This document shows, one piece after another, positions 1 to 44,640 of a stretch of 64,000 nt of DNA (position 1 is the first letter of the stretch; every line of letters begins with the position of its first letter). Under the pieces are notes generated by a model. That model was not told where the DNA came from. It saw only the letters and a program-made list of their open reading frames with translations, and did no database searches. The translations under genes were made by a program, and so were the position numbers. Source of the stretch: Escherichia coli (lineage in GTDB: Bacteria; Pseudomonadota; Gammaproteobacteria; Enterobacterales; Enterobacteriaceae); the NCBI RefSeq assembly GCF_024223415.1, contig NZ_CP100500.1. The stretch is one strand, 5' to 3'.

Positions 1-1062
1 CCCAGCCAGTCTTGCCATATACTCTGCATTTTTAGCAGCATATTCTCTGAAGTCTCTTAAAGGCCCCAGAACCGCCATCTTCGATTCCACATCGTTGTAA
101 TAGTCCGTCCAGATTCTGGCTGCCTGAGGAGAAAAGTGAAGGCAACGTCGCTCTCCCCTCATAGCCAGGCTTTCATCAATAAGTTCATTGATCCTCTTGT
201 CAAATAACTCCTGATACTGTGATGAATAATTATCTCCGGTTATTATCCTTGTCCCCTGCGTTGATGTTGGTTGACACATCAAAAACCGTGCATGATGTCC
301 TGATGTCTTCACCAGTTCTTTTTTTCGTGTACAAAAACCTTTGTGGTAAACATCAGGCTGAATCATCACCGATATCGTCAGTCTTGGGTCCTTCAAAAAA
401 ATCCCGGGAGATGATTTCCTGTCGATGAAAAGGGAACTACCATCCCATAAAGAGTTAAGTATTCCCAGTTTGCTCATTGCCCGGCTGTCAAAAATCACCC
501 CGCCCTCACTGGATACAAGAGCAAAAGAGCGATTGCTGTCGGAATAATATTTAAACATTCCCTCTGTCGTCGTATCATTAAAAATTGTCCGATTTATCTG
601 CGGTGGAACAGGACAACTATTCAGATGCATTCTGAGCTCTGATTCTGTTGCTTCATACTCTTTACCGGCACGAATCTCTTTATGAAGTTTTGACTCCAGT
701 GCCTTTTGTTTTTGCTCCCATATTTCCTTTTCTGCACTGTAATTCTCAACCAGTTTCGCATATTCTTCCGCAAGAGTTTCATCCCTGAGATAAAATGCTT
801 TCATAAAAACTTTATCCACGGTCGTTTTCCTTTCGCCGGAATCAGCCAGAATCATAGCGTAAAGATTAGAGGGGCCACGTAAATTACCAGGTCTGCACAC
901 ATCAATCTGATTCTGACAGGCAACTGACACCGCTGTTAATGCTGCTGTTGCAACCAGAGCCCCGGGCGCCTGTGTATTTTGCTGAGTTTCAATTATTGCA
1001 TTTCTCACCAGAGATGTTAATGCATTTATCGGAAAAGGGGCTTCCTGTTCAAGTAAGGACAT
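1..1062 (-). CDS. DUF3987/YfjI-like protein of a P4/CP4-57-type integrative element; 3' end lies beyond the window start
   Basis: Manual reverse translation from ATG (rc of 1060-1062, GAGGT Shine-Dalgarno upstream) is stop-free to position 1; N-terminus MSLLEQEAPFPINALTSLVRNAII. Absent from the ORF track because it has no in-window stop. Family assignment from memory of CP4-57 yfjI. Confidence 0.5.
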   Translation of the reverse strand, partial: MSLLEQEAPFPINALTSLVRNAIIETQQNTQAPGALVATAALTAVSVACQNQIDVCRPGNLRGPSNLYAMILADSGERKTTVDKVFMKAFYLRDETLAEEYAKLVENYSAEKEIWEQKQKALESKLHKEIRAGKEYEATESELRMHLNSCPVPPQINRTIFNDTTTEGMFKYYSDSNRSFALVSSEGGVIFDSRAMSKLGILNSLWDGSSLFIDRKSSPGIFLKDPRLTISVMIQPDVYHKGFCTRKKELVKTSGHHARFLMCQPTSTQGTRIITGDNYSSQYQELFDKRINELIDESLAMRGERRCLHFSPQAARIWTDYYNDVESKMAVLGPLRDFREYAAKNAEYMARLAG

Positions 1063-1321: not shown

Positions 1322-1543
1322 TCAAAAAACAACCATAGTGTAAATATTCATGGGTTCACGAAAATTATCTAATCTGCACACATTAGTCAGATCCTGACGG
1401 GAAATTGACATATCTGTTAATACTGGCATTGCCATCAGAGTCAGAGGTACTTGTTTATTATATTGAGCTTTAATCATTGCCTTTCCCATCATTAATGATC
1501 GCGCATATACTGAATACGGCGTATCCGGTTTTATGTAAGACAT
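1322..1543 (-). pseudogene. Truncated degenerate duplicate of the 5' end of the DUF3987-like gene
   Basis: 73-aa ORF; protein and DNA at about 1290-1620 parallel 810-1140 (QVPLTLMAMPVLTDMSISRQDLTNVCRLDNFREP versus QAPGALVATAALTAVSVACQNQIDVCRPGNLRGP). Confidence 0.4.
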
Positions 1544-1718: not shown

Positions 1719-2015
1719 TTATCTGCTCATGGTCATATCTGAAGAAAGCGTATGTCGCACTTCGTCATTAACACCTTTTACTGCTGATCTGGCTGGTACA
1801 GTATGTAAAGTAAGCCATTCGTCAATAGCTGATGAACGCCAGCCCACAGAACCACTACCAAGACGTACCGGCCTTGGGAAGGTTGCATCGTAATATTTCG
1901 ATAACGGATTCATTTTTTCGTAAATTGTCGAACGAGATATACCTAACAATTGGCTCAGTTCAGGCATCCGTAAGATGCGTGAAGGAGTCCAGCAGTGTCC
2001 GGATTGATCTGGCAT
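1719..2015 (-). CDS. AlpA-family (prophage CP4-57 type) transcriptional regulator
   Basis: Motif ILRMPELSQLLGISRSTIYEKMNP...YDATFPRPVRLGSGSVGWRSSAIDEWL matches the AlpA helix-turn-helix pattern; start trimmed to the internal Met (MPDQ) of track ORF 1719..2114. Confidence 0.6.
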   Translation of the reverse strand: MPDQSGHCWTPSRILRMPELSQLLGISRSTIYEKMNPLSKYYDATFPRPVRLGSGSVGWRSSAIDEWLTLHTVPARSAVKGVNDEVRHTLSSDMTMSR

Positions 2016-2237
2016 TTTATCCCCCTTAGTGTGGTGAACTGTCGTTACAGTTTGTATTCCTCGGGTAAATTTTTCTGCGTAAAAAAATGGGTTGAGCAAA
2101 AAGACAATAAACAACTAAAAATCAATATGATAGGAAACAACAGCATTATTGTTATTTTACTTTTCCCTTATCGCTGTCGATTCTCATTATCATTCATGGC
2201 AAAAAAACAGTAAAAGAGGCCCTAGTAATGACTCCGG

Positions 2238-2916: not shown

Positions 2917-3111
2917 ATGGACTCCGGATACCAACAGAATACCCCATTAATCTGCCCCCGGAAGTCATCCCGGTGCCTTCTGACATAATCTGTTAATACA
3001 TGAATTATTGCCCTGTTCAGAAAATATTAATTAAAAAATGAAAACCAGTTAACAGAAAAGCCACATGACATAATGTTAAAATTTTATATCGTGCAATAAA
3101 AGGAGAATGTT

Positions 3112-4938
3112 ATGTACAATTTTATCACTATAATGTATGATGTCTTTTCATGTTTTGGTGTTCTGGCTAAAAACCAGAATATCCGTGACATCCGAAATAT
3201 TAAAAACTTTTCCTCACATCAACATTCACTGGCCGACATGTTTGATGAATTAACATACATTATTGACAAAGAACAGGTACTGAGCACAGAACAACGAAAA
3301 GTTATATTCAGGAGATATGAAGATCTGTATGTTAAACTCATGCACTATTCTGTTTTTACAGACAAAACACATCAAATAATAAAACAAAAATATTTTAATG
3401 ATGTTGTTCCAATGATTCTCGCGCTCGACATCAGGAACACATATCGCCCGGATAATGAGATGGCATTTTACTATCATATCCATTCTTTTCTCACTCAGAT
3501 ACCGGATAATGAGGATGATATATATCATGCTGTAAGGACATATATGAGAAATTATGTTAAGTTATGTTTATCCGGATACACACCAACGAATGCGCATTTC
3601 AAAAATATCTTTGATGGAGTATATGAATTCATTCGTAATATTCGCAAAAACAGTACACCCGGAAAAACAAAACTTATTGCAGCTATCAACATATGCAAAG
3701 AAGCCTGTAAATATCTGCTTTGTTTAAGTGATAAAGACAAGGAAATAATATTTTCCGACTTAGATAAAATTCAGGTTGCATGTTATTCTCTCACTATATT
3801 ACTGGCTTTCGAAAGACGAACATCATTAACAAGTAACCTGGCAACTTTATATAAAATGCTGATAAACGAAAGAGAAGTTTCAGAATATGAATGTCAGCAA
3901 TTATATTTAATCAACCCAATAGATGTAATGAATATACTGAACAAATACATATATTACTTCCCTGGTGAGAATTCACCTCTTTATACACTGAAAATTGACA
4001 GTGCATTATCGTGGGATGCCATTGATGCAATACGAGACTATAGTATTTCTGATATTTATCTTTATCCTGAACAAAAAACAATAAATTGTATCGTTGAGAT
4101 TGAAAACATTGTCTTTGGCGGTTACATTTATACATTGAGCGACGGCGTCACATTACAAAATATGGAAAACACTTTAAAAGATTCCTCATGTCATTATGTA
4201 TTAAATGGCTATACAGAATTTGTTAACTGTTTAAGACAACTTACTTCAGGAAAGACTGAAAGTGTTCAGCGTACCATTAATAAACTGGAGTACGAAAAAT
4301 TACCTTTTGGATTTATCATTGCCGCGTTTGCTATATTAAAAATAGCATTTAAGATAAAGTTCAGTAAAAATCATGTAAATACCAGGGCATTATTAAATGA
4401 CATCAGTTATTTTATGACTTATCAGGGCGAGTCCATTAATCTTATTTCACTGGATCATGAATATCCAGAGTTCCGTCTTCAAAATGACACAAATACATAT
4501 TTATTGGGAAGGATGATATTTCTATATAACTCAATGATCTATAAATTCAGAAACTGCCAGGAACATGAAACCAATAACATTAACTCAGTTATGATAAATA
4601 ACCTATTACAGGAAGTTGATATAGCCCTTGGTAAAATAAATGACATTATAGACAGCAGAAACATATCAGTCCCCCATGAACTGGCAAATATTCTTATCCA
4701 CGAAAAAATACTTACAACACGTGAAAAAAAAGGAAACCTGATAAGCCTGTTTGATGGATTCACTTTATTCCATTGTGTTGGAATGATAACCTTTCTTATC
4801 CATTACCTCAGAACTCCTGAAGAAAAAGTAGAAAATGTATTTATGTTATATGGTGCAGATAAAAACAATAAACTACGCAGAAGACTGATTTATGATGCAC
4901 TAGAAATAATTCAGTCTCAGCAGGAGATGAAACCTTAA
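3112..4938 (+). CDS. Hypothetical 608-aa protein; AT-rich orphan cargo gene with no recognisable motif
   Basis: Long ORF with canonical AAGGAG Shine-Dalgarno 8 nt upstream of the ATG; AT-rich composition; no P-loop, HEPN, nuclease or transmembrane signature seen by eye. Confidence 0.8.
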   Translation: MYNFITIMYDVFSCFGVLAKNQNIRDIRNIKNFSSHQHSLADMFDELTYIIDKEQVLSTEQRKVIFRRYEDLYVKLMHYSVFTDKTHQIIKQKYFNDVVPMILALDIRNTYRPDNEMAFYYHIHSFLTQIPDNEDDIYHAVRTYMRNYVKLCLSGYTPTNAHFKNIFDGVYEFIRNIRKNSTPGKTKLIAAINICKEACKYLLCLSDKDKEIIFSDLDKIQVACYSLTILLAFERRTSLTSNLATLYKMLINEREVSEYECQQLYLINPIDVMNILNKYIYYFPGENSPLYTLKIDSALSWDAIDAIRDYSISDIYLYPEQKTINCIVEIENIVFGGYIYTLSDGVTLQNMENTLKDSSCHYVLNGYTEFVNCLRQLTSGKTESVQRTINKLEYEKLPFGFIIAAFAILKIAFKIKFSKNHVNTRALLNDISYFMTYQGESINLISLDHEYPEFRLQNDTNTYLLGRMIFLYNSMIYKFRNCQEHETNNINSVMINNLLQEVDIALGKINDIIDSRNISVPHELANILIHEKILTTREKKGNLISLFDGFTLFHCVGMITFLIHYLRTPEEKVENVFMLYGADKNNKLRRRLIYDALEIIQSQQEMKP

Positions 4939-4961
4939 ACAGGAAAATTATTTTTTATAAA

Positions 4962-4986
4962 CAGGGGATTATTGAGTAATCCCCTG
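4962..4986. terminator. Hairpin between the convergent 608-aa gene and int
   Basis: Inverted repeat CAGGGGA...TCCCCTG flanked by A/T runs. Confidence 0.35.
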
Positions 4987-5122
4987 CTCATCAAAACCCA
5001 CTTTCCTGACAATCTGATAACTATCAGCTCAATACATTTGACATAAAAGAGATCCCTTAATTATTACCGTTACGGTCACAATCACATATCAAATCATGAT
5101 TGTACAATATACATTTTCACTA

Positions 5123-6325
5123 TTATTTATTCATAATCTGAGACATCACATAATCCGCCCATGCCTGCATCATCGGTACACGCTGCTCCAGTAGATCAGT
5201 ACGATGATATGCCGCCTCAACCTTATTTTTCAGCGTATGAGCGAGCGCCCTTTCAGCCAGATCCCGCGAATACCCCTGCTCACTACACCAGTCCCTGAAT
5301 GTTGAACGAAAACCATGTGCCGTGGCGACTCGCCCCGGAATATCACTGACGGCTTTCTTTTTACGCAGAAAACTGGTCAACACCATATCTGAAAGGATCT
5401 GCTGCTTTCTGGGTGAAGGAAACACCAGTTCATCATGCAGACCACGTATATTTTCCAGAATGTAAATAGCCTGTCGGGATAAAGGAACACGATGCTGTAC
5501 CCTGGCTTTCATTCTTTCTGCTGGTATCGTCCATATCTGCTTATGAAAATCAATTTCAGTCCAGCGCATTCCCCTGGCTTCACCCGAGCGGGTTGCTGTA
5601 AGTATCACCATTAATAACAATGCGCGGGTAACATTATAGGGTTCATCGGTATACACACTGGTCGCCACAAAAAGCGGTAACTGCCTCCATGGCATTGCGG
5701 GTTGGTGTTCATCACGTCCTCTTGTCTGCTGGGGAAGCAAATGATCAACCACATCCACAGGATTTGCCACACAAAAACCATGTGCCCATCCCCACTGCAT
5801 AACAACATGAATGCGCTGTTTAACCCGGCTTGCCGTTTCTGACAAAGTTAACCAGACTGGCCGCAGTGTTTCTGCCACGTCCGCAGCCGTAATCGAATCC
5901 AGCGTTTTCGCTCCCAGTTGAGGAAAGGCGTAATTCTCAAGCGTCGATAACCACTGCCGGACATGCTTTGGATTTTCCCATCCAGGAGACAGTTCTGCAT
6001 GTACACGTCTGGCTGCATCGGCAAATGTTGGGATAACAACTTTTTCAGCCTCAGCCTTTTTAATCTCCAGAGGATCATCACCAGCAGCAAGTTGCTCTCG
6101 CATTATCCGGGCAGTACGTGCAGCTTCAGCAATGCTGATCTCAGGGTAAGTTCCCAATCCAGCATTACGCCTTTTTTGTGTCACCGGACTTACATAACGA
6201 AAAACCCATTTACCCCGACCCTTTACTGAAGAAGGATGAAGGGTCAGTCCTGTAATTCCCCCATGGGGCAATGGTTTGTCATCAGGTTTGATATGCCTTG
6301 CTTTCGTATCCGTCAATACTGCCAT
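5123..6325 (-). CDS. int: Tyrosine integrase, P4/CP4-57 family
   Basis: 400 aa; C-terminal catalytic region HGFRSTFRDWCSEQGYSRDLAERALAHTLKNKVEAAYHRTDLLEQR is typical of P4-like integrases. Confidence 0.9.
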   Translation of the reverse strand: MAVLTDTKARHIKPDDKPLPHGGITGLTLHPSSVKGRGKWVFRYVSPVTQKRRNAGLGTYPEISIAEAARTARIMREQLAAGDDPLEIKKAEAEKVVIPTFADAARRVHAELSPGWENPKHVRQWLSTLENYAFPQLGAKTLDSITAADVAETLRPVWLTLSETASRVKQRIHVVMQWGWAHGFCVANPVDVVDHLLPQQTRGRDEHQPAMPWRQLPLFVATSVYTDEPYNVTRALLLMVILTATRSGEARGMRWTEIDFHKQIWTIPAERMKARVQHRVPLSRQAIYILENIRGLHDELVFPSPRKQQILSDMVLTSFLRKKKAVSDIPGRVATAHGFRSTFRDWCSEQGYSRDLAERALAHTLKNKVEAAYHRTDLLEQRVPMMQAWADYVMSQIMNK

Positions 6326-6482: not shown

Positions 6483-6499
6483 GGTCCCCCTCACCGCCA
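6483..6499 (+). other. tRNA 3'-end-like sequence (CCCCTCACCGCCA); candidate att core or host serW 3' remnant at the island boundary
   Basis: Resembles a tRNA-Ser acceptor/CCA end but no complete tRNA (no T-arm) precedes it; followed by an intrinsic terminator. Confidence 0.35.
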
Positions 6500-6543: not shown

Positions 6544-6692
6544 CATTTTATCTGCCTGTACGGCAGTGAACATGGTGGGCGGGTGGAGTATGTTACCAGT
6601 GAATTTCTAAGCTGCCTGTACGGCAGTGAACGTTTGCTGCAACCGCTAGCCAAGACGGTAGGTTTTTCTAAGCTGCCTGTACGGCAGTGAAC
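6544..6692 (-). CRISPR. Orphan type I-F CRISPR mini-array: 3 repeats, 2 spacers, no cas genes in the window
   Basis: Minus-strand repeat GTTCACTGCCGTACAGGCAGCTTAGAAA (the E. coli I-F repeat) at 6604-6631 and 6665-6692 plus a degenerate terminal copy at 6544-6571; spacers of 32-33 nt. Confidence 0.85.
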
Positions 6693-9905: not shown

Positions 9906-10517
9906 GTGTCGGGGCTATTCTGCTGTTGCCGTGCTGGTGGATATTCTCCGGTATGCGGCTCCCCATATCGGCATCAGGCCCACCAGCGTGAAGCGTTTTT
10001 CATTTTTCGCGGGTATAAAAAATCGATGGGGCGGGCAGTCCTGAAGACGTCAGGGTACAGAGATTTGACCCGCCCCTCCCTGTGCATGAGCACAATAAGT
10101 AACCGAAGGCGGAATTCCGCCCTCGGTACTTACATATGAGAAACGATATTTCTTCCACCGATACCCTTTATTTGGGTATCGCGAGTAAGCCCCAAAATCT
10201 GGGTGTTACTCTTACTACCCAAACTACGGGTAGTTTCCGTAGTTTCATGGTCGAGTTGCAAATCTGCAACTCACCCACCAGCCAGCGCAATGTCGCATTA
10301 TCAGTCCTCAGATGTGAGGGATGTAGCCAGCTTTTCCCCCAGTGGGGATTATCCAGTTACCGACGGTTTAACCGCCTGTACCAGCACAACGAAAGAATTT
10401 GCGGGTAGCTTTAAACTACTCACAACATCCCATCTTACAGGCCGTGCCTTTCTAACTTTTTACAATGCAATAAGTCAGGTAACGCTATGCGTTCCACCGT
10501 GTACACCGCGCCAGTAA

Positions 10518-10542
10518 AACCCCCGGATTCGTGGTTTTCCTG
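10518..10542 (+). repeat. 25-bp direct repeat copy 2
   Basis: See copy 1 at 9881-9905. Confidence 0.5.
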
Positions 10543-10554
10543 AATATCAGGAAT

Positions 10555-10929
10555 CTACCGCCGCAACCGTTCCGGCTTCTTCCACTGATAAGTGTTTTTC
10601 GCGCTCTCCCTCCGTTGTTGAGAACGGCGACGGTATGCCAGCAACTCAAGGACTCTGGTTCGTATGTTGCGCATATCCACGCCGTTAAGCTCAATACCAT
10701 CACGGCGCATCACCTCAGCAACAACACACGCGTAATTTTCGGCTATCACGCTGTCCGGCTGCGTGGCCTCCTGTTCGCCAGCCTGCTGGCTGATTCCGGT
10801 AATACTGCGGATTATCCCGAGCGCTTCGGTCTCGGTCATGGTCATGGCCTCCATAGTGATGGCGGGTCCTCCTTGTGGGGTGCCCTGCCACGGGGCGGGA
10901 GCATCGCGGAAAAAGGCTAGTTTTTGCAT
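10555..10929 (-). CDS. Hypothetical protein of the satellite packaging module
   Basis: 124-aa ORF downstream of the Nu1-like gene; no recognisable domain; start uncertain. Confidence 0.45.
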   Translation of the reverse strand: MQKLAFFRDAPAPWQGTPQGGPAITMEAMTMTETEALGIIRSITGISQQAGEQEATQPDSVIAENYACVVAEVMRRDGIELNGVDMRNIRTRVLELLAYRRRSQQRRESAKNTYQWKKPERLRR

Positions 10930-11090
10930 TTTTATTCGTTATCACCACCAATGCAATATATTGATATGACTTGATGTTTTATTTTTCGGTGTCGATTTCG
11001 ATTGTTTTTTGTTCATCACTGACGCATAACGCCCACCAGCGCAACGCTGAAAGCCAGTCAGTAAACTGGCTTCGGTCATTGTGCACTACG

Positions 11091-11645
11091 TTACTTGTCT
11101 TTATCCGGCTGAAACTTATCAGGCACATTTCCGGTAGTTTCCATCAGATAATCGGACAGCATTCGCGGGATGTTTTCATCAAGTTTTGTGCATGCGTTAC
11201 AGGCTCTGACAACTTCTTTTTTCAGGCCATCCAGCATGGCGGGGGTCATCTGTGGGAAGCTCCTTTGCATAGTAAGCGGGAGGCTGTCCATGATTGATGA
11301 AATCTGACTCGCCAGTTTTGAAAGCGCGTACATGCAAAACTCTGTATCAATCACGTCACCGCGATCGCGCTCGTTTTTAAGTTCCTGCGCCTCCGCCTGT
11401 GCTGTCAGTAATCTGATCCTGACTCGTAAAAGTTCATCATCGTCAATCTCGCCTTTGTCGTTTGTAATCTGGCTGATTGCATTGTTAACCCGATTATCTA
11501 TTACACTGGCGACATCATAAAACGTCTCACGGCCCTTACGCTCGACGGGAATCACTCCCCACTTATCGAACGCAGTGGCGCTTACTCGGCAGCTTTTCGC
11601 CATGTTTTTTTTATTCATCAGGTGCGATTTCATCAATACCCCCAC
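11091..11645 (-). CDS. Terminase small subunit, lambda Nu1-like
   Basis: LLRVRIRLLTAQAEAQELKNERDRGDVIDTEFCMYALSKLASQISSIMDSLPLTMQRSFPQM...LDENIPRMLSDYL aligns with lambda Nu1; probable true start at the MNKKNMAK Met near 11618. Confidence 0.8.
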   Translation of the reverse strand: MGVLMKSHLMNKKNMAKSCRVSATAFDKWGVIPVERKGRETFYDVASVIDNRVNNAISQITNDKGEIDDDELLRVRIRLLTAQAEAQELKNERDRGDVIDTEFCMYALSKLASQISSIMDSLPLTMQRSFPQMTPAMLDGLKKEVVRACNACTKLDENIPRMLSDYLMETTGNVPDKFQPDKDK

Positions 11646-11727
11646 TTAATTAATGCTTCAGGTTGGTGTGTTGGTGTTATCTTTCCATTTTTATTCATAG
11701 AGATAGAGCGAACAACAAAACCACCAC

Positions 11728-11790
11728 CAACCCGAAAAGGCTCATAAATAGCGAAAATCCGCAAGGTCGACGCCCCGTAACGGGTCCACA
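11728..11790 (-). other. Lambda-type cos site (cosN/cosB)
   Basis: Minus strand reads ACGGGGCGTCGACCTTGCGGATTTTCGCTATTTATGAGCCTTTTCGGG, matching the lambda cos sequence as I recall it (ACGGGGCGGCGACCTCGCGGGTTTTCGCTATTTATGAAAATTTTCCGG); about 120 bp upstream of the Nu1-like gene. Confidence 0.8.
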
Positions 11791-11805
11791 TGCCGGAAAG
11801 GACCC

Positions 11806-11835
11806 ATAAAAAATAAAGCCGGACTACTCCGGCTT
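11806..11835 (-). terminator. Rho-independent terminator after the FinO/ProQ-like gene
   Basis: Stem AGCCGGA / TCCGGCT followed on the minus strand by a T-rich run. Confidence 0.5.
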
Positions 11836-11858
11836 CGTCTCTTCATGTGGTCAGGGTT

Positions 11859-12539
11859 TTATGCTTTCCGTACGCCCGAGGAACTGGCATTTTTCAGAAT
11901 AATATTATGCCCTGCTGGTGGCTTACCGTTATGCTTATTTTCTGCCTTCATGTTTCTGCGCTCCTGCTGTTTTTTCTTCATCTCATCCAGTCGCTTCCCC
12001 GCGTTCAACTGGTGCTCCTGTGTCACCTCCCCGCACGGATGGCCTTTCAGGTCGTAACGCACGCCACCAGCCATCAGGGAACGGTAATATCGCACTGAAC
12101 TGACATAATACGCCAGCGTTGCGCGAAGCGCTCCCTGACCTAATGAAATACCTCTCGCAGTAATATCCTCCATCAGGTCATCAAATATGCCAACCTTAAG
12201 CGGTCTGGGCGATTCCTGGCTGAAAAGTTCAGGCCAGAGCGCGGCAAGGCGTTCAACGCGTCTGATATTTTTTTTCCGGCTCTTTTCTGATTTGCGTTTT
12301 GCTGCCGTCTTCTGTTGTGTTTTCTGCTCGCGGCTCTGCTTTTGCGCTGGTGTGGTTTTATCCGGCTGTTCAGCCTCCTGCGTCTTTTTCTGCGGTGTGC
12401 CGTATATGCCTTTTGGTTTTCGGTTAATGGTCAGCTTTGTCATGTTCTCCCCCTTTGTGCTGTTCCACCAGCGGCATCTGCTACCCCGTGTCGCTCCCGC
12501 TGGTGTCGTGTTTCCCCGCCTGTTAATAACCGTCATCAT
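11859..12539 (-). CDS. FinO/ProQ-domain RNA-binding protein with a Lys/Gln-rich N-terminal region
   Basis: RPLKVGIFDDLMEDITARGISLGQGALRATLAYYVSSVRYYRSLMAGGVRYDLKGHPCGEVTQEHQ aligns with the E. coli ProQ N-terminal domain (RPLKIGIFQDL...RLYTSSWRYL...RVDLDGNPCGEL); start uncertain. Confidence 0.75.
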   Translation of the reverse strand: MMTVINRRGNTTPAGATRGSRCRWWNSTKGENMTKLTINRKPKGIYGTPQKKTQEAEQPDKTTPAQKQSREQKTQQKTAAKRKSEKSRKKNIRRVERLAALWPELFSQESPRPLKVGIFDDLMEDITARGISLGQGALRATLAYYVSSVRYYRSLMAGGVRYDLKGHPCGEVTQEHQLNAGKRLDEMKKKQQERRNMKAENKHNGKPPAGHNIILKNASSSGVRKA

Positions 12540-12843
12540 TTACGTTATCAGGGTAATCACGCCATATTTCATCAGTAAGCGACGGTAGCCCCATCTGTTG
12601 TATTGTCCTGTCTGCGGCCCTTCTGACTGCGTGAACATCATAACGGTTTTCAGGTATCGGGCGCTTTGCCTTCCTGATACATTCCCTTGCTCTCATTGCC
12701 GCAAGTTCTCTGTGCCTGTCTTCCTGAAGAGTAATCATCACATCCTGCCACCTTCTGGCAGCCCGTCGCCACAGTCCCCTGCTCTCGAGTTCTTCTGCTG
12801 TCGCGTCGCTTATTGTCCGGTTCTTCGGTGTGCTGTTGTTCAT
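12523..12843 (-). CDS. PerC-family transcriptional activator-like protein
   Basis: N-terminal EELESRGLWRRAARRWQDVM resembles the PerC/Pch signature (recalled, not searched). Confidence 0.55.
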   Translation of the reverse strand: MNNSTPKNRTISDATAEELESRGLWRRAARRWQDVMITLQEDRHRELAAMRARECIRKAKRPIPENRYDVHAVRRAADRTIQQMGLPSLTDEIWRDYPDNVNDDGY

Positions 12844-12860
12844 GTTGCTCCCCGCCTGAT

Positions 12861-13271
12861 TCAGAAGGGTATATCATCTCCGTAGGGGTCATCGCCTCCC
12901 GCTGGTGGCTTATTCCCCTGTGCGCCTGTGGTTTTGCGTGTTTTTCCGCCCGGTCGCACTGTCCGCGCACTGATTACGCTGTCTGCGATAACCTGCCAGC
13001 CCTGCCGCGTTTCCCCGTTCTGTCCGGTCCACTGGCTCACCTGCATGTTACCCGCCACGCTCAGGAGTTCACCCTTGCGGTGCTTTGCCAGTGCTTCGGC
13101 CTGTCTGCCAAACGCCAGCACAGATAACCACATCGTCGCCGTTCCGTCATCTGCCTGGCTGCACGGAAGGGGGACCGCCATACTCGCCATCGCCATTTGT
13201 GTCCCCTTGCTGGTGGTCTTTAACTGCGGGTCAGCCACCAGCCGCCCGTAAGCCGCTATCTGTGCTGTCAT
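12861..13271 (-). CDS. ssb: Single-stranded DNA-binding protein (SSB)
   Basis: OB-fold-like N-terminus (IAAYGRLVADPQLKTTSKGTQMAMASMAV), Gly-rich linker and the acidic C-terminal tail DDIPF. Confidence 0.8.
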   Translation of the reverse strand: MTAQIAAYGRLVADPQLKTTSKGTQMAMASMAVPLPCSQADDGTATMWLSVLAFGRQAEALAKHRKGELLSVAGNMQVSQWTGQNGETRQGWQVIADSVISARTVRPGGKTRKTTGAQGNKPPAGGDDPYGDDIPF

Positions 13272-13525
13272 GCTGTATGCTCTCCGGTTTTAACGTTGAT
13301 GGTTGTCACCTGTTCCGCTCCGGCAATCTCCCGTTCTGTCAGCGTGGCAAAATTTGCCGCTACCGTTGTCATGAATGCGCTTATCAGTGCGGGATGTGCT
13401 TTCGCGTATCCTTCTCCCGCGCTGCGGTCGATAATTTTTATCGCCACCCTCAGCCAGTGCTCTGTAAGGTCAATGGCGCGGTTATGTGGTTTCTTCTGAT
13501 TATTAAGTTTTCCTGATGTGTGCAT
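13268..13525 (-). CDS. Hypothetical protein
   Basis: 85-aa ORF overlapping the ssb start by 4 nt (translational coupling). Confidence 0.5.
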   Translation of the reverse strand: MHTSGKLNNQKKPHNRAIDLTEHWLRVAIKIIDRSAGEGYAKAHPALISAFMTTVAANFATLTEREIAGAEQVTTINVKTGEHTA

Positions 13526-13570
13526 TTTTATTTTTACCCCCTCGTTTAAAAAGTTTTGTGTTGTGGTGCA

Positions 13571-13806
13571 CCTCCTCTACCTCTCTACACAATCATCTTT
13601 CAGGTCAGTAATGGCGCGGCTTTCAGCGGGGTAGAGGGCTTTTTTGGCCCTCTACCTGCCATCTACCACCCCCTCACAAATGCCCTGAATTATGGTAGAG
13701 GGTGTAGAGGGCTTTTAAGTACCTTCTACCTGCCATCTACCCAATCTATCAACATGAAATATATGTAATTATTTTCTTAAGGTAGAAGGGGTAGAGGGCT
13801 TTTGTC
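13571..13806. repeat. Iteron cluster; candidate satellite replication origin
   Basis: At least three copies of GGTAGAGGGCTTTT and repeated CTACCTGCCATCTACC, including the palindrome GGTAGAGGGC-TTTTTTG-GCCCTCTACC, immediately 3' of the primase gene. Confidence 0.55.
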
Positions 13807-13811
13807 TAAAA

Positions 13812-15560
13812 CTATAAAAACGCGTCGCAGTCGTCTGTTGTTGTCACGTTGGTTTGCGTAACCCCTTTAATCCTGCGCGTTATATATTCATGTCCGTAAA
13901 CTTTCGCCGCTGGCTTCATGGCCTTGCTGAACTCAGCCACGTTCAGCGGTTTGCTCCTGCCTGCATACGCCATAAACGCCAGATAGACGCGGTAAAGGCT
14001 GTTTCTGGTCGTGTACTTCACGGAATCGCCACCGCCCCCCATCATCAGGCCACGTGCTTCCTCCAGAAAATTCAGGAACTGGCAAAACTCAATAACCGGA
14101 TCCGTTTGCTGCTTTATCGCCAGTGCTTCATCACCGTCACGCTGTTCCAGTAGTAAAGCCCGCGCCTTTTCAGGGTCTGCAAAGTTCGCCAGTAATCGGC
14201 GGATAATGACGGGGATTTCAGCCGCAATCCTTTCCGGTAGCTCCCTGTCTTTTTCAGCCTCACTGACGATATTGTCGAAACGAAAAATCACGCGACGACG
14301 TGCCACACCTCCGGCCCGTTCGGTGAATATCATCGGGTTATTGTTGGTCGCCAGCACCACCGCCCTGATTACAGCCGTGAAACGCTTTTCGTATTTCGGG
14401 TTAATTTCCACGGGGTCACCGCCCGTGATTTTCTTGATGCCCGTTCCTTCGCCTGTATATTTCGGCTGGTCTGCCAGGACGATAAGACGACTCCCGACAA
14501 CCTGCGCACGCCCACCAGCATCATCAAGCGATGTCATCTCAGCGCTTACCGTGTTCTGTTTCCCTGCCAGAAGGCTGGCTATGTGCGTGAATGTACTTTT
14601 ACCGCTCCCGCCGTCTCCGGTGGCCTCAATAAACATCTGCCAGTCGTACCGGTTCGCCATAATCATGTACAGCGCGGCACATATACGCATCATCTTGCGC
14701 GGGTCTTTTCCGGCTGCGTGCTCAAGCCATTTATGAAAGTTTGGCGCGTTATCGCGGATGTTCTCCCCAGGTGCTGGTGGCGTGTACTCAATGCCATTGT
14801 GCGTGGTGATCCAGTTCTCCGGCGTGTGCGGGGAAAATTCCCCCGTTTTCAGGTCAAGCGCACCATTGGCGAACGGCAGCAAATCGCCGGACGGCTCGCC
14901 CATTGGTTCGGCAATAACTTTTAACGCTTCCACGGCGTTATTGATTACGCGCTTGCTGAAAGTGGCCCTGTGCTCTGAATAGATCGCCACCATTTCGCGG
15001 CTCAGTTCCATTGTGCTGACCGGACACCATACCCCGCCGCGCCATACGTGAACGATTTCACTTTCCGGATGCACACAAACGCCATCAAATCGACCAGCAA
15101 GCATCTGTGCGCGCTCACTGTCTGCCATTTGTGCCAGTTGCGTATTTTTCTGCTCCGGCATGGTAAGCCCTGCAGCAATATTTTCACGCTCAGCATTCAG
15201 ATAACGCCGCCAGTTTTCACACTTCTGACCGTGCATTCCTTCGGGGTAAAAATTTGCGTCCTGTACGCCAGCCGCCGCCAGCTTCTGACCAATCGCCTTT
15301 ATCATTACTGGCGCAAGATATCCGGCCCTGAATATACGCACGGATTTTCTGCCTTCCGGCACAATTTGCAGCTTATCCAGTTCGGATAACTGCTGCTCCC
15401 CAAGCCACACAGGAGGCTCATTATCTCCGGCCATACGCGCGTCATGTTCCTGCCATTGTTTCGCGTGTGCCCAGGCATCACTACCCGCAAAAATAATGAC
15501 TTCAGTTCCTTTGTGTTTTATGCCGCGTGACTGCAGTTTTACGTTCGGTGCCAGTTTCAT
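13812..15560 (-). CDS. Replication protein: primase/helicase (P4 alpha-like, P-loop NTPase)
   Basis: 582 aa; Walker A GDGGSGKSTFT; size and position match satellite pri-rep genes. Confidence 0.8.
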   Translation of the reverse strand: MKLAPNVKLQSRGIKHKGTEVIIFAGSDAWAHAKQWQEHDARMAGDNEPPVWLGEQQLSELDKLQIVPEGRKSVRIFRAGYLAPVMIKAIGQKLAAAGVQDANFYPEGMHGQKCENWRRYLNAERENIAAGLTMPEQKNTQLAQMADSERAQMLAGRFDGVCVHPESEIVHVWRGGVWCPVSTMELSREMVAIYSEHRATFSKRVINNAVEALKVIAEPMGEPSGDLLPFANGALDLKTGEFSPHTPENWITTHNGIEYTPPAPGENIRDNAPNFHKWLEHAAGKDPRKMMRICAALYMIMANRYDWQMFIEATGDGGSGKSTFTHIASLLAGKQNTVSAEMTSLDDAGGRAQVVGSRLIVLADQPKYTGEGTGIKKITGGDPVEINPKYEKRFTAVIRAVVLATNNNPMIFTERAGGVARRRVIFRFDNIVSEAEKDRELPERIAAEIPVIIRRLLANFADPEKARALLLEQRDGDEALAIKQQTDPVIEFCQFLNFLEEARGLMMGGGGDSVKYTTRNSLYRVYLAFMAYAGRSKPLNVAEFSKAMKPAAKVYGHEYITRRIKGVTQTNVTTTDDCDAFL

Positions 15561-15856
15561 TTTTTACCCCTGAATCCGTTAATCATGGTTTTCATCTTCT
15601 GAATATTGGCGCGTGCTTTCTCCCTGCTGGTGGGCACGTTACGCGGTACGGCCTGCACAAGAGAAAAATCACGCACAAACTGATAAACAGGCATCACGCA
15701 ATCATATTCGTAACCTTCATGGCGGTAGGTGATGCGCCGTTCTGCCACGCCTTTAATCGTTACCGTACCGCCGTAGTTATCACGGAAAATATCGCCGGGA
15801 CGGATTTCAGGCCGAGTGAGGCCGCTGGCAGTAAAGCCAGAATTTTTCTTTTTCAT
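15557..15856 (-). CDS. Hypothetical protein (99 aa), coupled to the primase gene
   Basis: Stop overlaps the primase start (ATGA). Confidence 0.6.
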   Translation of the reverse strand: MKKKNSGFTASGLTRPEIRPGDIFRDNYGGTVTIKGVAERRITYRHEGYEYDCVMPVYQFVRDFSLVQAVPRNVPTSREKARANIQKMKTMINGFRGKK

Positions 15857-15886
15857 GGTTTTATTTTCCTGTCAGTGATTCCGGCT

Positions 15887-16060
15887 TTATTCCGGCGCGA
15901 ATACAGGCTTCAGAAAAAAAGCCAGAGAACCAATAACCTCATTATTTCTAAGGCGGCATTGCGATTTCACTTTCCCTTTATCCAGGAATATCAAAACGCG
16001 CCCCGTATAATCAGATGGCACATTAAGCACTACAGGTAAGTGCGCTTCATGATTATTCAT
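15887..16060 (-). CDS. Hypothetical small protein (57 aa)
   Basis: Start trimmed to the ATG preceded by AGGAGGTGG; N-terminus MNNHEAHLPVVLNV; start overlaps the stop of the upstream gene. Confidence 0.5.
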   Translation of the reverse strand: MNNHEAHLPVVLNVPSDYTGRVLIFLDKGKVKSQCRLRNNEVIGSLAFFLKPVFAPE

Positions 16061-16340
16061 GGCTAACCACCTCCTGGAATTTTCTTCTGTAACGCGCCTC
16101 TGCCACATATTCAGCATAGTCCGACGCAATATTGAGAATATCGCTACCCGTTCCTGAATGTTCGGCGGTTTCCAGTAAAAAACATGCAGCTTTTACCATG
16201 TCAGCAACACATAACAGCGCAATATCTGTATCTTCCGGTGTGCCATCAAATTCCTGTTTCAGGGCATTAAAACGATCATCACGCATAACCCCATATTCAC
16301 AATCAGCAATCAGGATGGCTTTGGCCTCATTCAGTGCCAT
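16053..16340 (-). CDS. Hypothetical protein; N-terminal extent uncertain (may start at 16496)
   Basis: Only the C-terminal 95-147 codons of the 662-aa track ORF look protein-like (MALNEAKAILIADCEYGVMRDDRFNALKQEFDGTPEDTDIALLCVADMVKAACFLLETAEHS). Confidence 0.4.
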   Translation of the reverse strand: MALNEAKAILIADCEYGVMRDDRFNALKQEFDGTPEDTDIALLCVADMVKAACFLLETAEHSGTGSDILNIASDYAEYVAEARYRRKFQEVVSHE

Positions 16341-16494
16341 ATCAGCGGTAAGCTGTGCGTAGGCCAGCAAATGCGGGATTATTGCCCCTGTATATTCCGG
16401 CTCTCTGATAATGTGGTCGGATGTGTTGATTAAATAGTTTGTGCGAAAAATGCACCTGTAACCATCAGTTAACAACGGATATACAGGGGGGACC

Positions 16495-16665
16495 ATGAAT
16501 GATAAGGGGGTGCCGTTTGATGTGCTCCTGCAAAAGCTGAATGCTGCACGCGCCGCAAGGGAACGTGAGCGCATGAGTAATAACCCTGTCCCTCCTGAAT
16601 TACCTCGCCCTGAACATTTTCCGCTTGAGGATTTCATCAGGGGACGAATCCGAACAAAACGATAA
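16495..16665 (+). CDS. Small protein (56 aa), paralog of the 16909 ORF
   Basis: ATG preceded by a G-rich Shine-Dalgarno; shares the PxxFPLE(D/R)FI motif with ORF 16909..17103; below the track length cutoff. Confidence 0.35.
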   Translation: MNDKGVPFDVLLQKLNAARAARERERMSNNPVPPELPRPEHFPLEDFIRGRIRTKR

Positions 16666-16908
16666 CCGCCGCCGTGATATGAGGCATCACGACGCAATGC
16701 ATTACAGGTGAGCACCATGAACAAATCCATATTATCCCCCACAGTTCTGGACGTAAACACAAAGCAGCGACAGATATTATTACGCGCCGTCATTAAAGCC
16801 AGACACGAGAAATTAAACCAAATCTTAAAATAAGATACGCCGCTACCGCTGTAAGTCTTCATCAGAAACAGAAAACGCCAGAGCAGATGAGCACGGAGGT
16901 AACTCTTT

Positions 16909-17103
16909 ATGAAAATAAACGAATCAGGGGAAATTACCGAAGCCAGCGTGGTACGCCAGCGGAGGCGGGAACGACGGGTACGGCCCCCCGCGCCATCCGA
17001 TAATTTCCCGCTTGAGCGCTTCATCAGTGAACGGCCCCGCATACGCTGGAACGGCACAACCCCATACCCCGAGGAGAGACAGACAAAAAACAAACAGCGA
17101 TGA
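16909..17103 (+). CDS. Small protein (64 aa), paralog of the 16495 ORF
   Basis: GGAGGT Shine-Dalgarno 9 nt upstream; C-terminal FPLERFISERPRIR. Confidence 0.4.
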   Translation: MKINESGEITEASVVRQRRRERRVRPPAPSDNFPLERFISERPRIRWNGTTPYPEERQTKNKQR

Positions 17104-17382
17104 TGAAATCTGGAGGCCAATACCATCACCCAGCCAGTCGGGGATTGCTGGCGGGCTTCCTGTTCGCTGGTGGCCCCGATGGTAATAACGCGTGGTTGTG
17201 CTGTGCTCAGGGCGATAAAACGCCAGATGTATTTATTCAGGTTGTGCGGGTCCCGCCCTTGCGGGTGTGTGGTATGATTTAACATAGCTACCTCGATACG
17301 CTTTCTATCGTTGGTGGTTAGAAGCCCCGTTACTGCTCCAACAGTGCGGGGTTTCGTCGTTTCTGCACCTTTCATCAACAAG

Positions 17383-17434
17383 GTGTTGAACACCAATTTA
17401 AGCCTAGGTGTTAAACACGCCAAGTGTTGAACAC
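17383..17434 (+). promoter_or_regulatory. Three palindromic operator-like sites GTGTT(G/A)AACAC
   Basis: Sites at 17383-17393, 17408-17418 and 17424-17434, about 50 bp upstream of the small gene at 17485. Confidence 0.55.
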
Positions 17435-17484
17435 TTATTTTTTTTCCTGCATACTGCATTTGTTTTTTGTAAGGGGTACACAAC

Positions 17485-17664
17485 ATGGCGACAAAAGCAG
17501 TAAACGCAAAATCACAAACAGTTGCGGCAAGGGTTCCGCATGAAGTTATGAACAATGTTGAGGCGGTAAAAATGCCTGGTGAAAGTACAGGGCAGTTTGT
17601 AACAGCAGCATTAAAGCGAGAAGTTGAATACCGCCAGCGCCGCAAGGCCAAAGAATCAGAATAA
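17485..17664 (+). CDS. Small DNA-binding protein, ribbon-helix-helix-like (59 aa)
   Basis: AAGGGG Shine-Dalgarno; N-terminal strand-like TVAARVPHEVMNNVEAV then a basic helix; downstream of the palindromic operators. Confidence 0.45.
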   Translation: MATKAVNAKSQTVAARVPHEVMNNVEAVKMPGESTGQFVTAALKREVEYRQRRKAKESE

Positions 17665-17712
17665 TCACTATCAGCGCCGTGGTGTGAGGTACTGCGGCGC
17701 ATTGTTTTAAAG

Positions 17713-17913
17713 GTGATAATTATGAATAACCAGGAACTACAAAATAAAGCATTATCAATTATCATGCGCCAGCGTGAGAAAACCCGCAGGGAAATAAATA
17801 AGGCATTAACCCGTACTGAAAATCTTAAAGTTCCTGATAAGTTCGCCCTTGATCCTTTTGTCGAGAAATACCCTCGGCGCTTAAAAGCAAACAAAAACCG
17901 CCCACCTGGCTGA
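17713..17913 (+). CDS. Hypothetical small protein (66 aa)
   Basis: AGGTGA Shine-Dalgarno; basic helical sequence. Confidence 0.4.
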   Translation: MIIMNNQELQNKALSIIMRQREKTRREINKALTRTENLKVPDKFALDPFVEKYPRRLKANKNRPPG

Positions 17914-18051
17914 CAATCCACCAGCAAGCCACCACACTGGACACATTGCCCACCAGCCAGCAAATCGCTATGATGTTCGGGCTTATGTTTAGTGTTTTCC
18001 CATTGGCGACCGCCCCCGGTCGCCTTTGTTTTATGTGTCATATACTCCCCT

Positions 18052-18348
18052 TTACGCTGCCTTGCCTGAATTAATGCGATCCCGGCTTTTAACCCATTCC
18101 ATAACCTCGGACAGCAGCCAACCTACAGAACGCCCACCAAGATTACGGCGAGACGGAAAGCTCCCTTTTTTCTCCAGTTCGTAGCGTGTAGTGCGACACA
18201 CTCCAGTTAACTTACGACATTCATCCTCACGGATTACGCGATCTTCATTTATTTCACGCATACAAAAACCTACATAAAAATTACGTATATAAACTTTTCT
18301 CTTAGCTGTAGATATATGAGATCGGATATTACTTAGATTCTTTTTCAC
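18052..18348 (-). CDS. AlpA-family transcriptional regulator
   Basis: C-terminal TRYELEKKGSFPSRRNLGGRSVGWLLSEVMEWV matches the AlpA pattern; true start may be an internal Met. Confidence 0.7.
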   Translation of the reverse strand: MKKNLSNIRSHISTAKRKVYIRNFYVGFCMREINEDRVIREDECRKLTGVCRTTRYELEKKGSFPSRRNLGGRSVGWLLSEVMEWVKSRDRINSGKAA

Positions 18349-18680
18349 CTCTTAAATTAAAAACACAACCATGCTAAAGGCTTTGTTCGCTAAGGTTCGT
18401 AGAAGCTCGTTAGTGTTTAAAATCGTGTCACGAGTTTTTAAGCGACGCAACAAAAAATGTCGTCATTTGGCATGTCACCTGAATTACCTCATTAAAAACA
18501 AATAGATAAACCATCAGATGTTGGAACAATCAAGAAACAGAGAATAAGAACTCAGAAGAAGACATTTCAATTTTTTTCGATAGTTGACACATATAAAGAG
18601 AAGATATTTGCAGATATTCCCCGATATTCTAAGATCTATTCACGGCTGTAATCTCTTAAAGAAAAAACAGCCGTAATTTG

Positions 18681-19919
18681 TCAAGAATTTTGGGGGTAAA
18701 TTCGCGGGGTCATAACAACGATTTTTTCATCATTGTTCTGGAGAAGCTCGAGACGGTCTACCCATAGATTAAGAGCGTCACGCTTTGCATCGAGATAACG
18801 GGAGTGGTTATAGACGCGTTGCATTCCTGGCATCTGGTGGGCAGTAAGCTGTTCAACAATATGCGGATCCACGCCTAAATCGTTCAGCATGGTTGTAAAT
18901 GTGTGCCGGATGTCGTGCAACGACCAGGGGGCTTGATTAATGCGTCTGTGTGCCGTTCTTCCGTACTCTGCTACGGATGATTGCCCTTTCAGTTCTCCAA
19001 GCAATAAGCCCGTGTGCCTGTTCTGCTCCACCAGCTTCATGACGAACGGCAAGATCGCTTCCGGTATTGGCCTGAATATTGCTACCTTCGTTTTGCTGTG
19101 TTCTTTCGGCACAGTCCAGAGCATTTCTTTAAAATCCCATTCCCGAACCTCGGAGCGTCTTAGCTCAGTGGTACGGCATCCGAAGACAATCAGAAGGCGA
19201 ATTAAAGCGCTGTAGTACGGCGGGAAAATTTTTTCATCCAGTGCGCGGAGTAGCTCGCCAAGCTCCTTGTTTGTTAGCACTCGCTCGCTTATTTCTGCTT
19301 TTTTTCCCACATCACCTACGACCATATCATCAAGAACGTTACTGACGGCGTAGCGACGTTTACGGCAGTACTTAAGCGCCTGTTTGCATACCTGCAACAA
19401 AAAGCCGGCTGATACCGGATTACGCTTAGCAAGCTGGTCAAAACAGGCCAGCCAGTGGCGTAGCTCGCATTTATCCAGCGGCATAGCACCAATCTGGCTG
19501 ATTATGTGCTTATTGATACGGCTTTTCAGTGATTCGTGGTCAGTGCGCTTTTCCTTCGCATACGACTCAAGCCAGTAAGTGAGCGCGTCCTTAACCGTCA
19601 CGGGGGCTAACGCTTCCTGCACTGTGTGATTAAGCTCATGGCGTGGATTTTTCCCCTCCGCCAGCCAGGCGCGACACTGTGCCGCTTTTTCCCTGGCTGC
19701 TTTCAGGCTCAGATCGGGATAGTTGCCCAGTCTCAGGCGTTCCGGTGATACCTGCCTGCCAGTTCCGGCCCTGTAAGTGAAATACCAGGTTAACAGGCCG
19801 CTGGTGGAATGTCTTACGCTAAGATTGCCACCGTCATTAAAAAAGGCGTTTTTTGTGGTTGGTGATCCGCTTAATTTTCGTAAAAGAGTGTCGCTAAGTC
19901 TATGAATTGCGCTGCTCAT
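18681..19919 (-). CDS. int: Tyrosine integrase
   Basis: 412 aa; catalytic region LHDIRHTFTTMLNDLGVDPHIVEQLTAHQMPGMQRVYNHSRY. Confidence 0.9.
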   Translation of the reverse strand: MSSAIHRLSDTLLRKLSGSPTTKNAFFNDGGNLSVRHSTSGLLTWYFTYRAGTGRQVSPERLRLGNYPDLSLKAAREKAAQCRAWLAEGKNPRHELNHTVQEALAPVTVKDALTYWLESYAKEKRTDHESLKSRINKHIISQIGAMPLDKCELRHWLACFDQLAKRNPVSAGFLLQVCKQALKYCRKRRYAVSNVLDDMVVGDVGKKAEISERVLTNKELGELLRALDEKIFPPYYSALIRLLIVFGCRTTELRRSEVREWDFKEMLWTVPKEHSKTKVAIFRPIPEAILPFVMKLVEQNRHTGLLLGELKGQSSVAEYGRTAHRRINQAPWSLHDIRHTFTTMLNDLGVDPHIVEQLTAHQMPGMQRVYNHSRYLDAKRDALNLWVDRLELLQNNDEKIVVMTPRIYPQNS

Positions 19920-19945
19920 GTTTCGCGTTTCCGGTCATCAAAATT

Positions 19946-20078
19946 AACTACACCATTGACTACACCGTGCATCGTACAAGGGCAAACCGTGACGAACAAG
20001 AGCGAACAAGTAAAACAAAATTTTCCTTTATAATCATAGCGATGAATGCACACAAAACACTACCACGAACACCCGCGA
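19946..20078. repeat. Right-arm repeats: AACTACACC / GACTACACC followed by CGAACA motifs
   Basis: Same motifs and orientation as the left arm at 9706-9760; overlaps the int promoter region. Confidence 0.4.
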
Positions 20079-44514: not shown

Positions 44515-44640
44515 GCTGCGTACATTCGCCGGGGGGGTTTGTAGGTCTGATAAGACGCGCCAGCGTCGCATCAGACATCAGCACGGTGCCTGTGCCGGAT
44601 GCGGCGTGGACGCCTTATCCGGCCTACATAGTGCATAAAT
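44515..44640. repeat. REP/BIME palindromic elements
   Basis: GCCTGATGCGACGCTGGCGCGTCTTATCAGGCCTAC-type and GCCGGATGCGGCGTGGACGCCTTATCCGGCCTACA-type units between artM and artJ. Confidence 0.65.

Follow-up and report, generated by a model that had tools for sequence, protein, structure and literature searches.

Among the described systems closest to the locus treated here, P4 satellites carry a hotspot between int and psu–delta–sid, the contents of which are nearly unlinked to the core genes (bioRxiv 10.64898/2026.02.27.708500). Also comparable are the 'integrase-only' defence islands of Escherichia coli, whose mobility is unknown (PMC10121019), and Pseudomonas defence islands with intY, alpA and a Gp2-like gene, which are moved by a jumbo phage (PMC12595487). 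Like the islands discussed below, both have a tyrosine integrase at a tRNA or tmRNA gene, AlpA, a Gp2-like protein and defence cargo, with no obvious transfer genes; the Pseudomonas elements differ in having alpA at their 3′ end (PMC12595487). The gene on which we focus is mentioned in neither study, and our literature search found no paper that mentions it. A further point of comparison is CP4-57, in which the likewise uncharacterised yfjH lies between intA and alpA, divergent from alpA–yfjI (DUF3987)–yfjJ (Gp2-like). YfjH thus resembles our protein in position, yet at 318 aa it has half the size and an unrelated sequence; homology between the two was rejected, as hhalign gave it a probability of 0.1%.

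The window analysed here is a stretch of 64,000 nucleotides from an E. coli genome (RefSeq assembly GCF_024223415.1, contig NZ_CP100500.1). An earlier note, made from the letters alone, had singled out a 608-aa gene – hereafter X, for both gene and protein – as an orphan in the cargo slot beside a P4-type integrase and as a candidate single-gene phage-defence or abortive-infection determinant. Our analysis shows X to be a monocistronic gene whose position is constant across a family of integrative islands that target tRNA genes, and its features suggest a part in the specificity or control of the island more than a stand-alone role in phage defence. The features of the locus are as follows.

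1–1062, minus strand: first 354 codons of a DUF3987 (YfjI-like) gene, which extends past position 1 of the window
1322–1543, minus strand: 73-aa ORF, 35% identical to residues 1–72 of the DUF3987 protein, probably a duplicated remnant
1719–2015, minus strand: alpA, 98 aa (PF05930), divergent from X
2053–2105, no strand assigned: alpA-proximal conserved cis motif, ...TGTATTCCTCGGG...CTGCGTAAAAAAATGG..., matching TGTCCnCGTnnAAAAATGGnAACCAACCGGAG in related islands
about 2225–2990 (approximate), minus strand: degenerate IS1 with frameshifted insA/insB, between alpA and X (from the RefSeq annotation of equivalent loci)
3100–3105, plus strand: ribosome-binding site AAGGAG, 6 nt upstream of the ATG of X
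3112–4938, plus strand: X, 608 aa, ATG start, 71 kDa, pI 6.3, predicted all-α, member of an uncharacterised family
4724–4733, plus strand: A8GG tract inside X, a site of recurrent frameshifts
4940–5008, no strand assigned: imperfect palindrome right after the X stop codon, with 32-nt arms that are 78% complementary and the core CAGGGGATTA-TTGAG-TAATCCCCTG
5123–6325, minus strand: P4-type tyrosine integrase (int), 400 aa (Arm-DNA-bind_3 PF13356, Phage_int_M PF22022, Phage_integrase PF00589), convergent with X
6486–6499, plus strand: last 14 nt of the tRNA-Ser gene serW, CCCCCTCACCGCCA, at the island/chromosome junction

Homology to K-12 resumes at 6486–6499 and continues into clpA, which together with the 14-nt serW 3′ fragment places the integration at the 3′ end of a tRNA gene. 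The element has the hallmarks of a P4-type, CP4-57-like island – alpA followed by a DUF3987 (YfjI-like) gene and a Gp2-like (YfjJ) gene – with the complete module present in loci L004 and L005, both 99.9% identical to the window. Its likeness to P4 satellites extends to X adjoining a P4-type integrase in this E. coli lineage and to the defence systems that adjoin in related islands, but psu, delta, sid and alpha were found neither in the window, which does not reach the far part of the island, nor in related loci of 20 kb. The placement of X on a mobile element, between a P4-type integrase and AlpA and with an IS1-family element beside it, is as the earlier note had it. The IS1, a frameshifted remnant, is common to window-type and UTI89/O157-type islands (about 91% overall identity), so its insertion must be old, predating the split between the two. 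In the island types of O104:H4 (L027) and strain 550 (L028), by contrast, nothing interrupts the alpA–X region.

X is certainly coding, and it is under purifying selection. An ORF of its length in such AT-rich DNA is far beyond chance, its dN/dS against the UTI89 and O157 alleles is 0.18–0.20, and its dS in the same comparison (0.18) equals that of int. The GC content of X (0.32) is indeed, as had been noted, well below that of int (0.48) and clpA (0.51–0.54), and also below that of alpA (0.45), and the ribosome-binding site is canonical. Scans for promoters and terminators found no more sites around X than in shuffled controls and none in the compact intergenic region, so that promoter assignments are by eye only.

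Searches of Pfam, NCBIfam, PHROGs and PDB sequences returned no match to X, nor did Foldseek against the BFVD viral models; no defence-protein HMM in PADLOC-DB 2.0.0 matched it at E ≤ 1, and the backbone neighbours of X and YfjH were likewise without a PADLOC match. The label 'orphan' nevertheless proved too strong: when 1.84 billion cluster representatives were searched exhaustively with HMMER, 34 clusters (at 50% identity) matched, and in 16 of these the length is close to that of X or greater (568–865 aa), with 24–34% identity over the matched stretches; a profile search of a word-indexed database added no further members. AlphaFold2, run on a 23-sequence alignment, yields a confident all-helical model with 29 helices (pLDDT 83.9, pTM 0.83), and Foldseek against AFDB50 matched it solely to proteins labelled uncharacterised or auto-named ('membrane protein', 'HTH domain-containing protein'). 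The best match, from E. coli, has the same sequence as the X of the window (100% identity); others come from Shigella, Salmonella, Pantoea, Leclercia, Hafnia, Providencia, Proteus, Edwardsiella, Citrobacter and Klebsiella, and remoter ones (12–18% identity) from Aeromonas, Burkholderia and Pseudomonas. The family resides mainly in Enterobacterales, and its members, down to about 20% identity, share one confidently predicted fold (TM 0.8 against the AlphaFold DB models of homologues).

The family is thus undescribed, in keeping with the earlier claim. We call X categorically new only in the sense of having no detectable relation, by sequence or by fold, to anything described; no claim about mechanism is included. 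As modelled, X is a soluble all-α protein with a predicted fold unlike any solved structure. Its best-conserved blocks comprise residues 1–90, 391–420 and 541–570, whereas the middle (about 241–360) is the most variable part, rich in indels and gaps. Only L499 and K508 are invariant across the family, and the alignment contains no conserved catalytic residues; a metal site at an HxH motif or at H36 was considered and rejected, several homologues being without those residues. The absence of a recognisable domain or transmembrane signature, reported at first by eye, held up as well. The helix at 397–415 is hydrophobic in the E. coli allele only (Kyte–Doolittle 2.04); because its counterparts in homologues score 0.6–1.8 and it is packed inside the confident helical model, it is not a membrane span, which disposes of the membrane-protein reading suggested by the label on some UniProt fragments.

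Neither Pfam nor NCBIfam detects a DNA-binding (HTH) domain in X. A seeming hint of one, a relative fused to an HTH, was also discarded. The N-terminal extension of the 865-aa relative P0048 resembles an IS481 transposase (NCBIfam E 5.6e-19, below the cut-off; no Pfam match) and is a diverged, IS-derived remnant, which in that lineage occupies the same alpA–X interval as the IS1 of the window and is in frame with X. A similar N-terminal extension, resembling an IS481 transposase, is probably also the reason why a 930-aa relative bears the database label 'HTH'.

The genomic context of the family is uniform. We compared 13 other element types, 10 found through X and three through alpA. All 10 X-seeded contexts have a leftward alpA–DUF3987 operon, mostly running on into a Gp2-like (YagK/YfjJ) gene, with X divergent from it; the L010 type departs from this in having its Gp2-like gene on the far side of X. 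Most alpA–X gaps measure about 60–100 bp; L023 (about 250 bp) and L020 (435 bp) have longer ones. Since a sample gathered through X is unable to show that the backbone always has X, E. coli genomes were also searched by alpA, and all three clades recovered in this way carry an X-family gene in the slot: two with hmmsearch E-values of 1e-162 and 1e-161, the third being L029, in which the gene is split into parts of 398 and 197 aa. In 13 of 13 element types, then, an X-family gene is divergent from the alpA–DUF3987 operon, with a Gp2-like gene nearby.

Population data agree. At a threshold of at least 85% nucleotide identity, X (as an approximately 93.7%-identical copy) occurs in about 19% of complete E. 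coli genomes (1036 of 5426) and the alpA segment in 1028 of the same 5426, a nearly perfect co-distribution; nearly every genome with X has its alpA. Every X encountered lay in the slot next to alpA. Tblastn did not find it in 50,697 phage genomes, and among 72,556 plasmids the matches were limited to four E. coli records of 0.2–4.8 Mb, which look like pieces of chromosome, so that X is effectively absent from plasmids. The only counter-example seen is the more distant CP4-57, with alpA–yfjI–yfjJ and the unrelated 318-aa yfjH in the slot.

These observations bear directly on the proposal that X is free-standing cargo. The contents of a P4-like hotspot would differ in kind and show little linkage to the core; unlike the int–psu cargo of P4 satellites, the X slot held a single family throughout the elements examined, tightly linked to alpA, with no PADLOC or phage match. 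With a family member beside alpA in every related island examined, X is more like a component of the island than like free cargo. The description as variable cargo in a P4-type hotspot is therefore not supported by the 10 X-seeded and three alpA-seeded contexts, and the reading as an orphan cargo gene is right in part only: X is carried by a mobile element, and defence-rich DNA does adjoin in related islands, but the gene is fixed beside alpA in all 13.

The same evidence weighs on the idea that X defends the cell by itself, as an anti-phage or abortive-infection protein whose variable middle would sense a phage component and which would block infection directly. Much in the surroundings of the gene is congenial to it. 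In related islands X sits at the edge of defence-packed arms (GmrSD and a type I restriction–modification system), and CRISPR-Cas I-E, GAP1/DO-GTPase/SLATT, a trypsin–AAA_16 protein and Qat are found near other family members; X itself has a low GC content and is carried by a mobile element, and deep allelic diversity on similar backbones, described below, is also typical of immune sensors. A defence function is nevertheless made less likely by the lack of an effector or enzymatic domain, of conserved catalytic residues and of any PADLOC match, the last being the outcome of a check that the earlier note had itself proposed. Moreover, X is confined to the alpA-adjacent slot, is missing from the phage genomes and effectively from the plasmids searched, and has a family member in every element examined, as opposed to the near-zero core linkage of hotspot cargo; its short-term dN/dS of 0.18 means that no arms-race signal is visible. 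On balance we regard this explanation as rather doubtful.

If the position of X is fixed, its sequence is anything but. In an all-pairs comparison of twelve elements, X proteins are 22–37% identical in almost all pairs, with little relation to the similarity of the backbones; the outliers are L003/L008 (50%) and the window/UTI89 (93%). Elements L015 and L025 illustrate the point: int is 98%, Gp2 96%, DUF3987 93% and AlpA 90% identical between them, yet X is 32% identical, and their backbone nucleotide identity of 94–100% collapses at the X start codon. In L003 and L009, similarly, int (97%) and DUF3987 (81%) are alike and X is at 37%. Across all pairs, X identity correlates with that of AlpA (Spearman 0.81) and to a smaller extent with that of DUF3987 (0.50) and Gp2 (0.48), the coefficient for int (0.28) not being significant. 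Simple co-divergence of X with the backbone is not borne out by this comparison. What it shows are old allelic lineages that have been shuffled between backbones, independently of the backbone; in this one respect, exemplified by L015/L025, the slot does behave as a cargo hotspot would. Given the purifying short-term dN/dS of 0.18, the diversity looks like that of maintained ancient alleles and not like ongoing rapid change.

The DNA on either side of X follows different rules. The intergenic motif TGTCCnCGTnnAAAAATGGnAACCAACCGGAG is better conserved than every protein except AlpA, and its 3′ end coincides with the ribosome-binding site of X where islands are compact. In the window the motif has been kept on the alpA side of the IS1, and its distance from alpA is fixed in both the window and L020, so that it belongs to the alpA promoter region. 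Its conservation whatever the X allele makes a role as an allele-specific operator unlikely. On the other side, a palindrome follows X at a distance of 8–56 nt in 11 of 15 loci, with arms of 14–25 bp that each contain two TGCTA(C/A/T) repeats; in nine of these 11 loci the pattern TGCTAMNNNTGCTAM occurs solely at the palindrome, and L009 has one extra site. The palindrome of the window is of a different type and occupies the place of the TGCTAC-type palindrome of related islands. Between L014 and L025, whose X genes differ, the palindrome is the only homology past the X start codon. Palindrome type tracks the DUF3987/Gp2 clade and not the X allele, and X can therefore be seen as a cassette bracketed by cis elements of the backbone.

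Such an arrangement invites the suggestion that X is an accessory factor for replication or transfer of the island, acting for example at the palindrome that follows it, which might be an origin used by the Gp2-like initiator and the DUF3987 helicase, or binding a component of a helper phage for packaging. In its favour, backbone cis elements bracket X, with a palindrome in 11 of 15 loci, and related islands with int, alpA and Gp2 are moved by a phage (PMC12595487). It is at odds, on the other hand, with the way the palindrome follows the DUF3987/Gp2 clade, L014 and L025 sharing it while differing at X, and no DNA-binding domain was detected. Proteins with which satellites engage their helpers are often non-enzymatic and helical (e.g. 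P4 Sid and SaPI CpmB), and X resembles them in this. However, the X-carrying islands are without packaging genes and range in size to more than 80 kb (OI-43/48). All in all, a role in replication or transfer seems unlikely to us.

The integrity of X in E. coli raises another question, namely whether the gene is doing anything there at all. Among sisters otherwise 99.9% identical to the window, the A8GG tract has lost a G in L004, L005 and L007 and an A in L006, leaving products of 542–546 aa. Another allele group is frameshifted around codon 520, by our reading in a C5 run at about 4670. X could on this account be a silenced, decaying passenger ORF without a present function in E. coli: besides these recurrent frameshifts and the split gene of L029, the IS1 parts it from its ancestral upstream region, and its AT-richness is a common trait of H-NS-silenced DNA. 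Yet a dN/dS of 0.18 with a dS equal to that of int is not that of a decaying gene, the cluster of intact 605-aa X alleles has 8897 members as against single digits for each truncated cluster, and the family has been kept to about 20% identity with one confident fold. We consider decay very improbable.

Our best guess, to which we assign a probability of only about 0.38, is that X is a non-enzymatic specificity or control factor of the alpA-led excision–replication switch. A fixed slot, alleles that are swapped irrespective of the backbone, purifying selection, a predicted fold unlike any solved structure, the lack of conserved catalytic residues and the flanking cis elements together give the gene a regulator-like logic, and from them we infer that X acts by binding and not by catalysis. 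It would recognise a particular partner – from a phage, the host or a rival element – and this recognition would decide when the alpA operon is on, so that X would correspond in function to the master regulator of a satellite or to an immunity determinant; in the window's E. coli lineage, the old IS1 has come to separate X from the alpA promoter region.

The analogy – a functional one only – is to the SaPI Stl repressors and to phage immunity repressors (e.g. cI). X is likewise divergent from an excision–replication operon, and it shares with them a family-wide presence and very divergent alleles that are shuffled among similar backbones. Unlike them, it has no HTH, is two to three times larger and shows no sequence or fold similarity that we could find.

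Several points speak against X as a control factor of the switch. It has no DNA-binding domain, and the intergenic motif is independent of the allele. The allele can change while AlpA stays 90% identical, as between L015 and L025. Frameshifted or split versions of X are tolerated in several E. coli lineages, and X is still kept in islands in which IS1 has long stood between it and alpA. Finally, CP4-57 manages the same backbone genes with the unrelated yfjH in the slot. A more specific proposal, tentative and on our estimate unlikely, ties X to the large class of 'integrase-only' defence islands of Enterobacterales: it would be their control element, sensing phages or competitors, with each allele setting the trigger of the alpA–DUF3987–Gp2 excision–replication programme and the cassette, between a conserved promoter motif and an origin-like palindrome, being swapped in the manner of an immunity region.

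Islands with int, alpA, DUF3987 and Gp2 bear a large share of the defence and virulence cargo of enterobacteria; in E. coli they include the O157 OI-43/48 and SpLE1 tellurite/urease/Iha islands and the UPEC serX islands. How such islands are induced, replicated and moved has been left open (PMC10121019, PMC12595487). With one slot in every island examined, divergent versions and conserved flanking sites, X provides a handle on these three processes.

The interval between alpA and X – the 608-codon gene of an uncharacterised family that diverges from the alpA-DUF3987 operon – holds a cis motif, TGTCCnCGTnnAAAAATGGnAACCAACCGGAG, which lies upstream of alpA at a constant spacing from it and is kept among islands whose proteins are only ~30% identical. 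The motif set comprises the window and the intergenic regions of ten related loci (L003, L008, L009, L010, L015, L019, L026 and L027-L029), and in compact islands the motif overlaps the ribosome-binding site of X. Read by eye, it may contain overlapping divergent promoters; a consensus scan for promoters found none. The same interval has been struck by two independent insertion sequence (IS) events, one an old, degenerate IS1 of the OI-43/UTI89/window lineage, the other a diverged IS481-transposase remnant. This remnant, which has a below-cut-off NCBIfam match (E 5.6e-19) and none in Pfam, forms an in-frame fusion with X in P0048, a family member of 865 aa.

Features of the alpA-X interval
Window 2053-2105: alpA-proximal cis motif
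Window about 2225-2990: old degenerate IS1
L020 10001-10780: diverged IS481-transposase remnant, fused to X of P0048

Within the module, X is the gene with the highest AT content in each of the islands examined: its GC fraction is 0.29-0.39, and the remaining module genes there have 0.36-0.55. The window also has a 73-aa ORF, placed between alpA and the gene for DUF3987, that is 35% identical to residues 1-72 of the DUF3987 protein and is probably a duplicated remnant. In X-carrying E. coli islands, the Gp2-like (YagK/YfjJ-type) gene is adjoined by a primase-helicase of the 'TOTE conflict system' AEP type – possibly IEE, the enhancer of IS excision of SpLE1 – and in some X-bearing islands it is immediately followed by one or two H-NS-like genes.

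Other genes of X-bearing islands
Window 1322-1543(-): 73-aa ORF
L004/L005 2493-4844; L002 1771-4131; L027 11215-13575: AEP-type primase-helicase
L020 5363-6404; L023 5038-5439: H-NS-like gene(s)

Outside the module, the stretch from the serW fragment at the island junction to clpA has three copies of a CRISPR repeat, corresponding to the I-F-type CRISPR remnant known from E. coli; two of the three match Rfam CRISPR-DR4 (50 bits), and no cas genes were noticed near them. As the BLAST matches read, the window would carry one repeat unit more than K-12. A second mobile element, which looks like a PICI-type phage satellite, adjoins cspD at about 10500-19950; the RybB sRNA and the REP-derived naRNA4 element, both clear Rfam matches, are ordinary core-genome features.

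Features of the window outside the module
6552-6571, 6604-6631, 6665-6692: CRISPR repeats
11091-11645(-): small terminase subunit, cspD-side element
13812-15560(-): primase, cspD-side element
16053-18041(-): 662-aa protein with repressor-like segment, cspD-side element
18681-19919(-): integrase, cspD-side element
44544-44624: naRNA4 element
60633-60711: RybB sRNA

X itself is repeatedly frameshifted. Its A8GG tract (window 4724-4733) has changed independently, losing a G in the sister loci L004, L005 and L007 and an A in L006, and the alleles P0007-P0020 are shifted around codon 520, presumably at a putative C5 run near window 4670. All of these frameshifts cut X to about 542-546 aa, and their recurrence could reflect either decay or a contingency-like switch.

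Immediately 3' of the X stop codon, 11 of 15 loci carry a long palindrome, with arms of 14-25 bp and two TGCTA(C/A/T) repeats per arm; the window has an imperfect palindrome of a different type at the same position.

Palindromes behind X, selected loci
L003 6755-6796: post-X palindrome
L014 11773-11824: post-X palindrome
L027 9200-9240: post-X palindrome
Window 4940-5008: imperfect palindrome of the different type

Past the X start codon, the palindrome is the sole homology remaining between L014 and L025, and the palindrome type goes with the DUF3987/Gp2 clade. The post-X palindrome could bind a protein, act as a terminator of an unusual kind or be the origin at which the Gp2-like initiator works.
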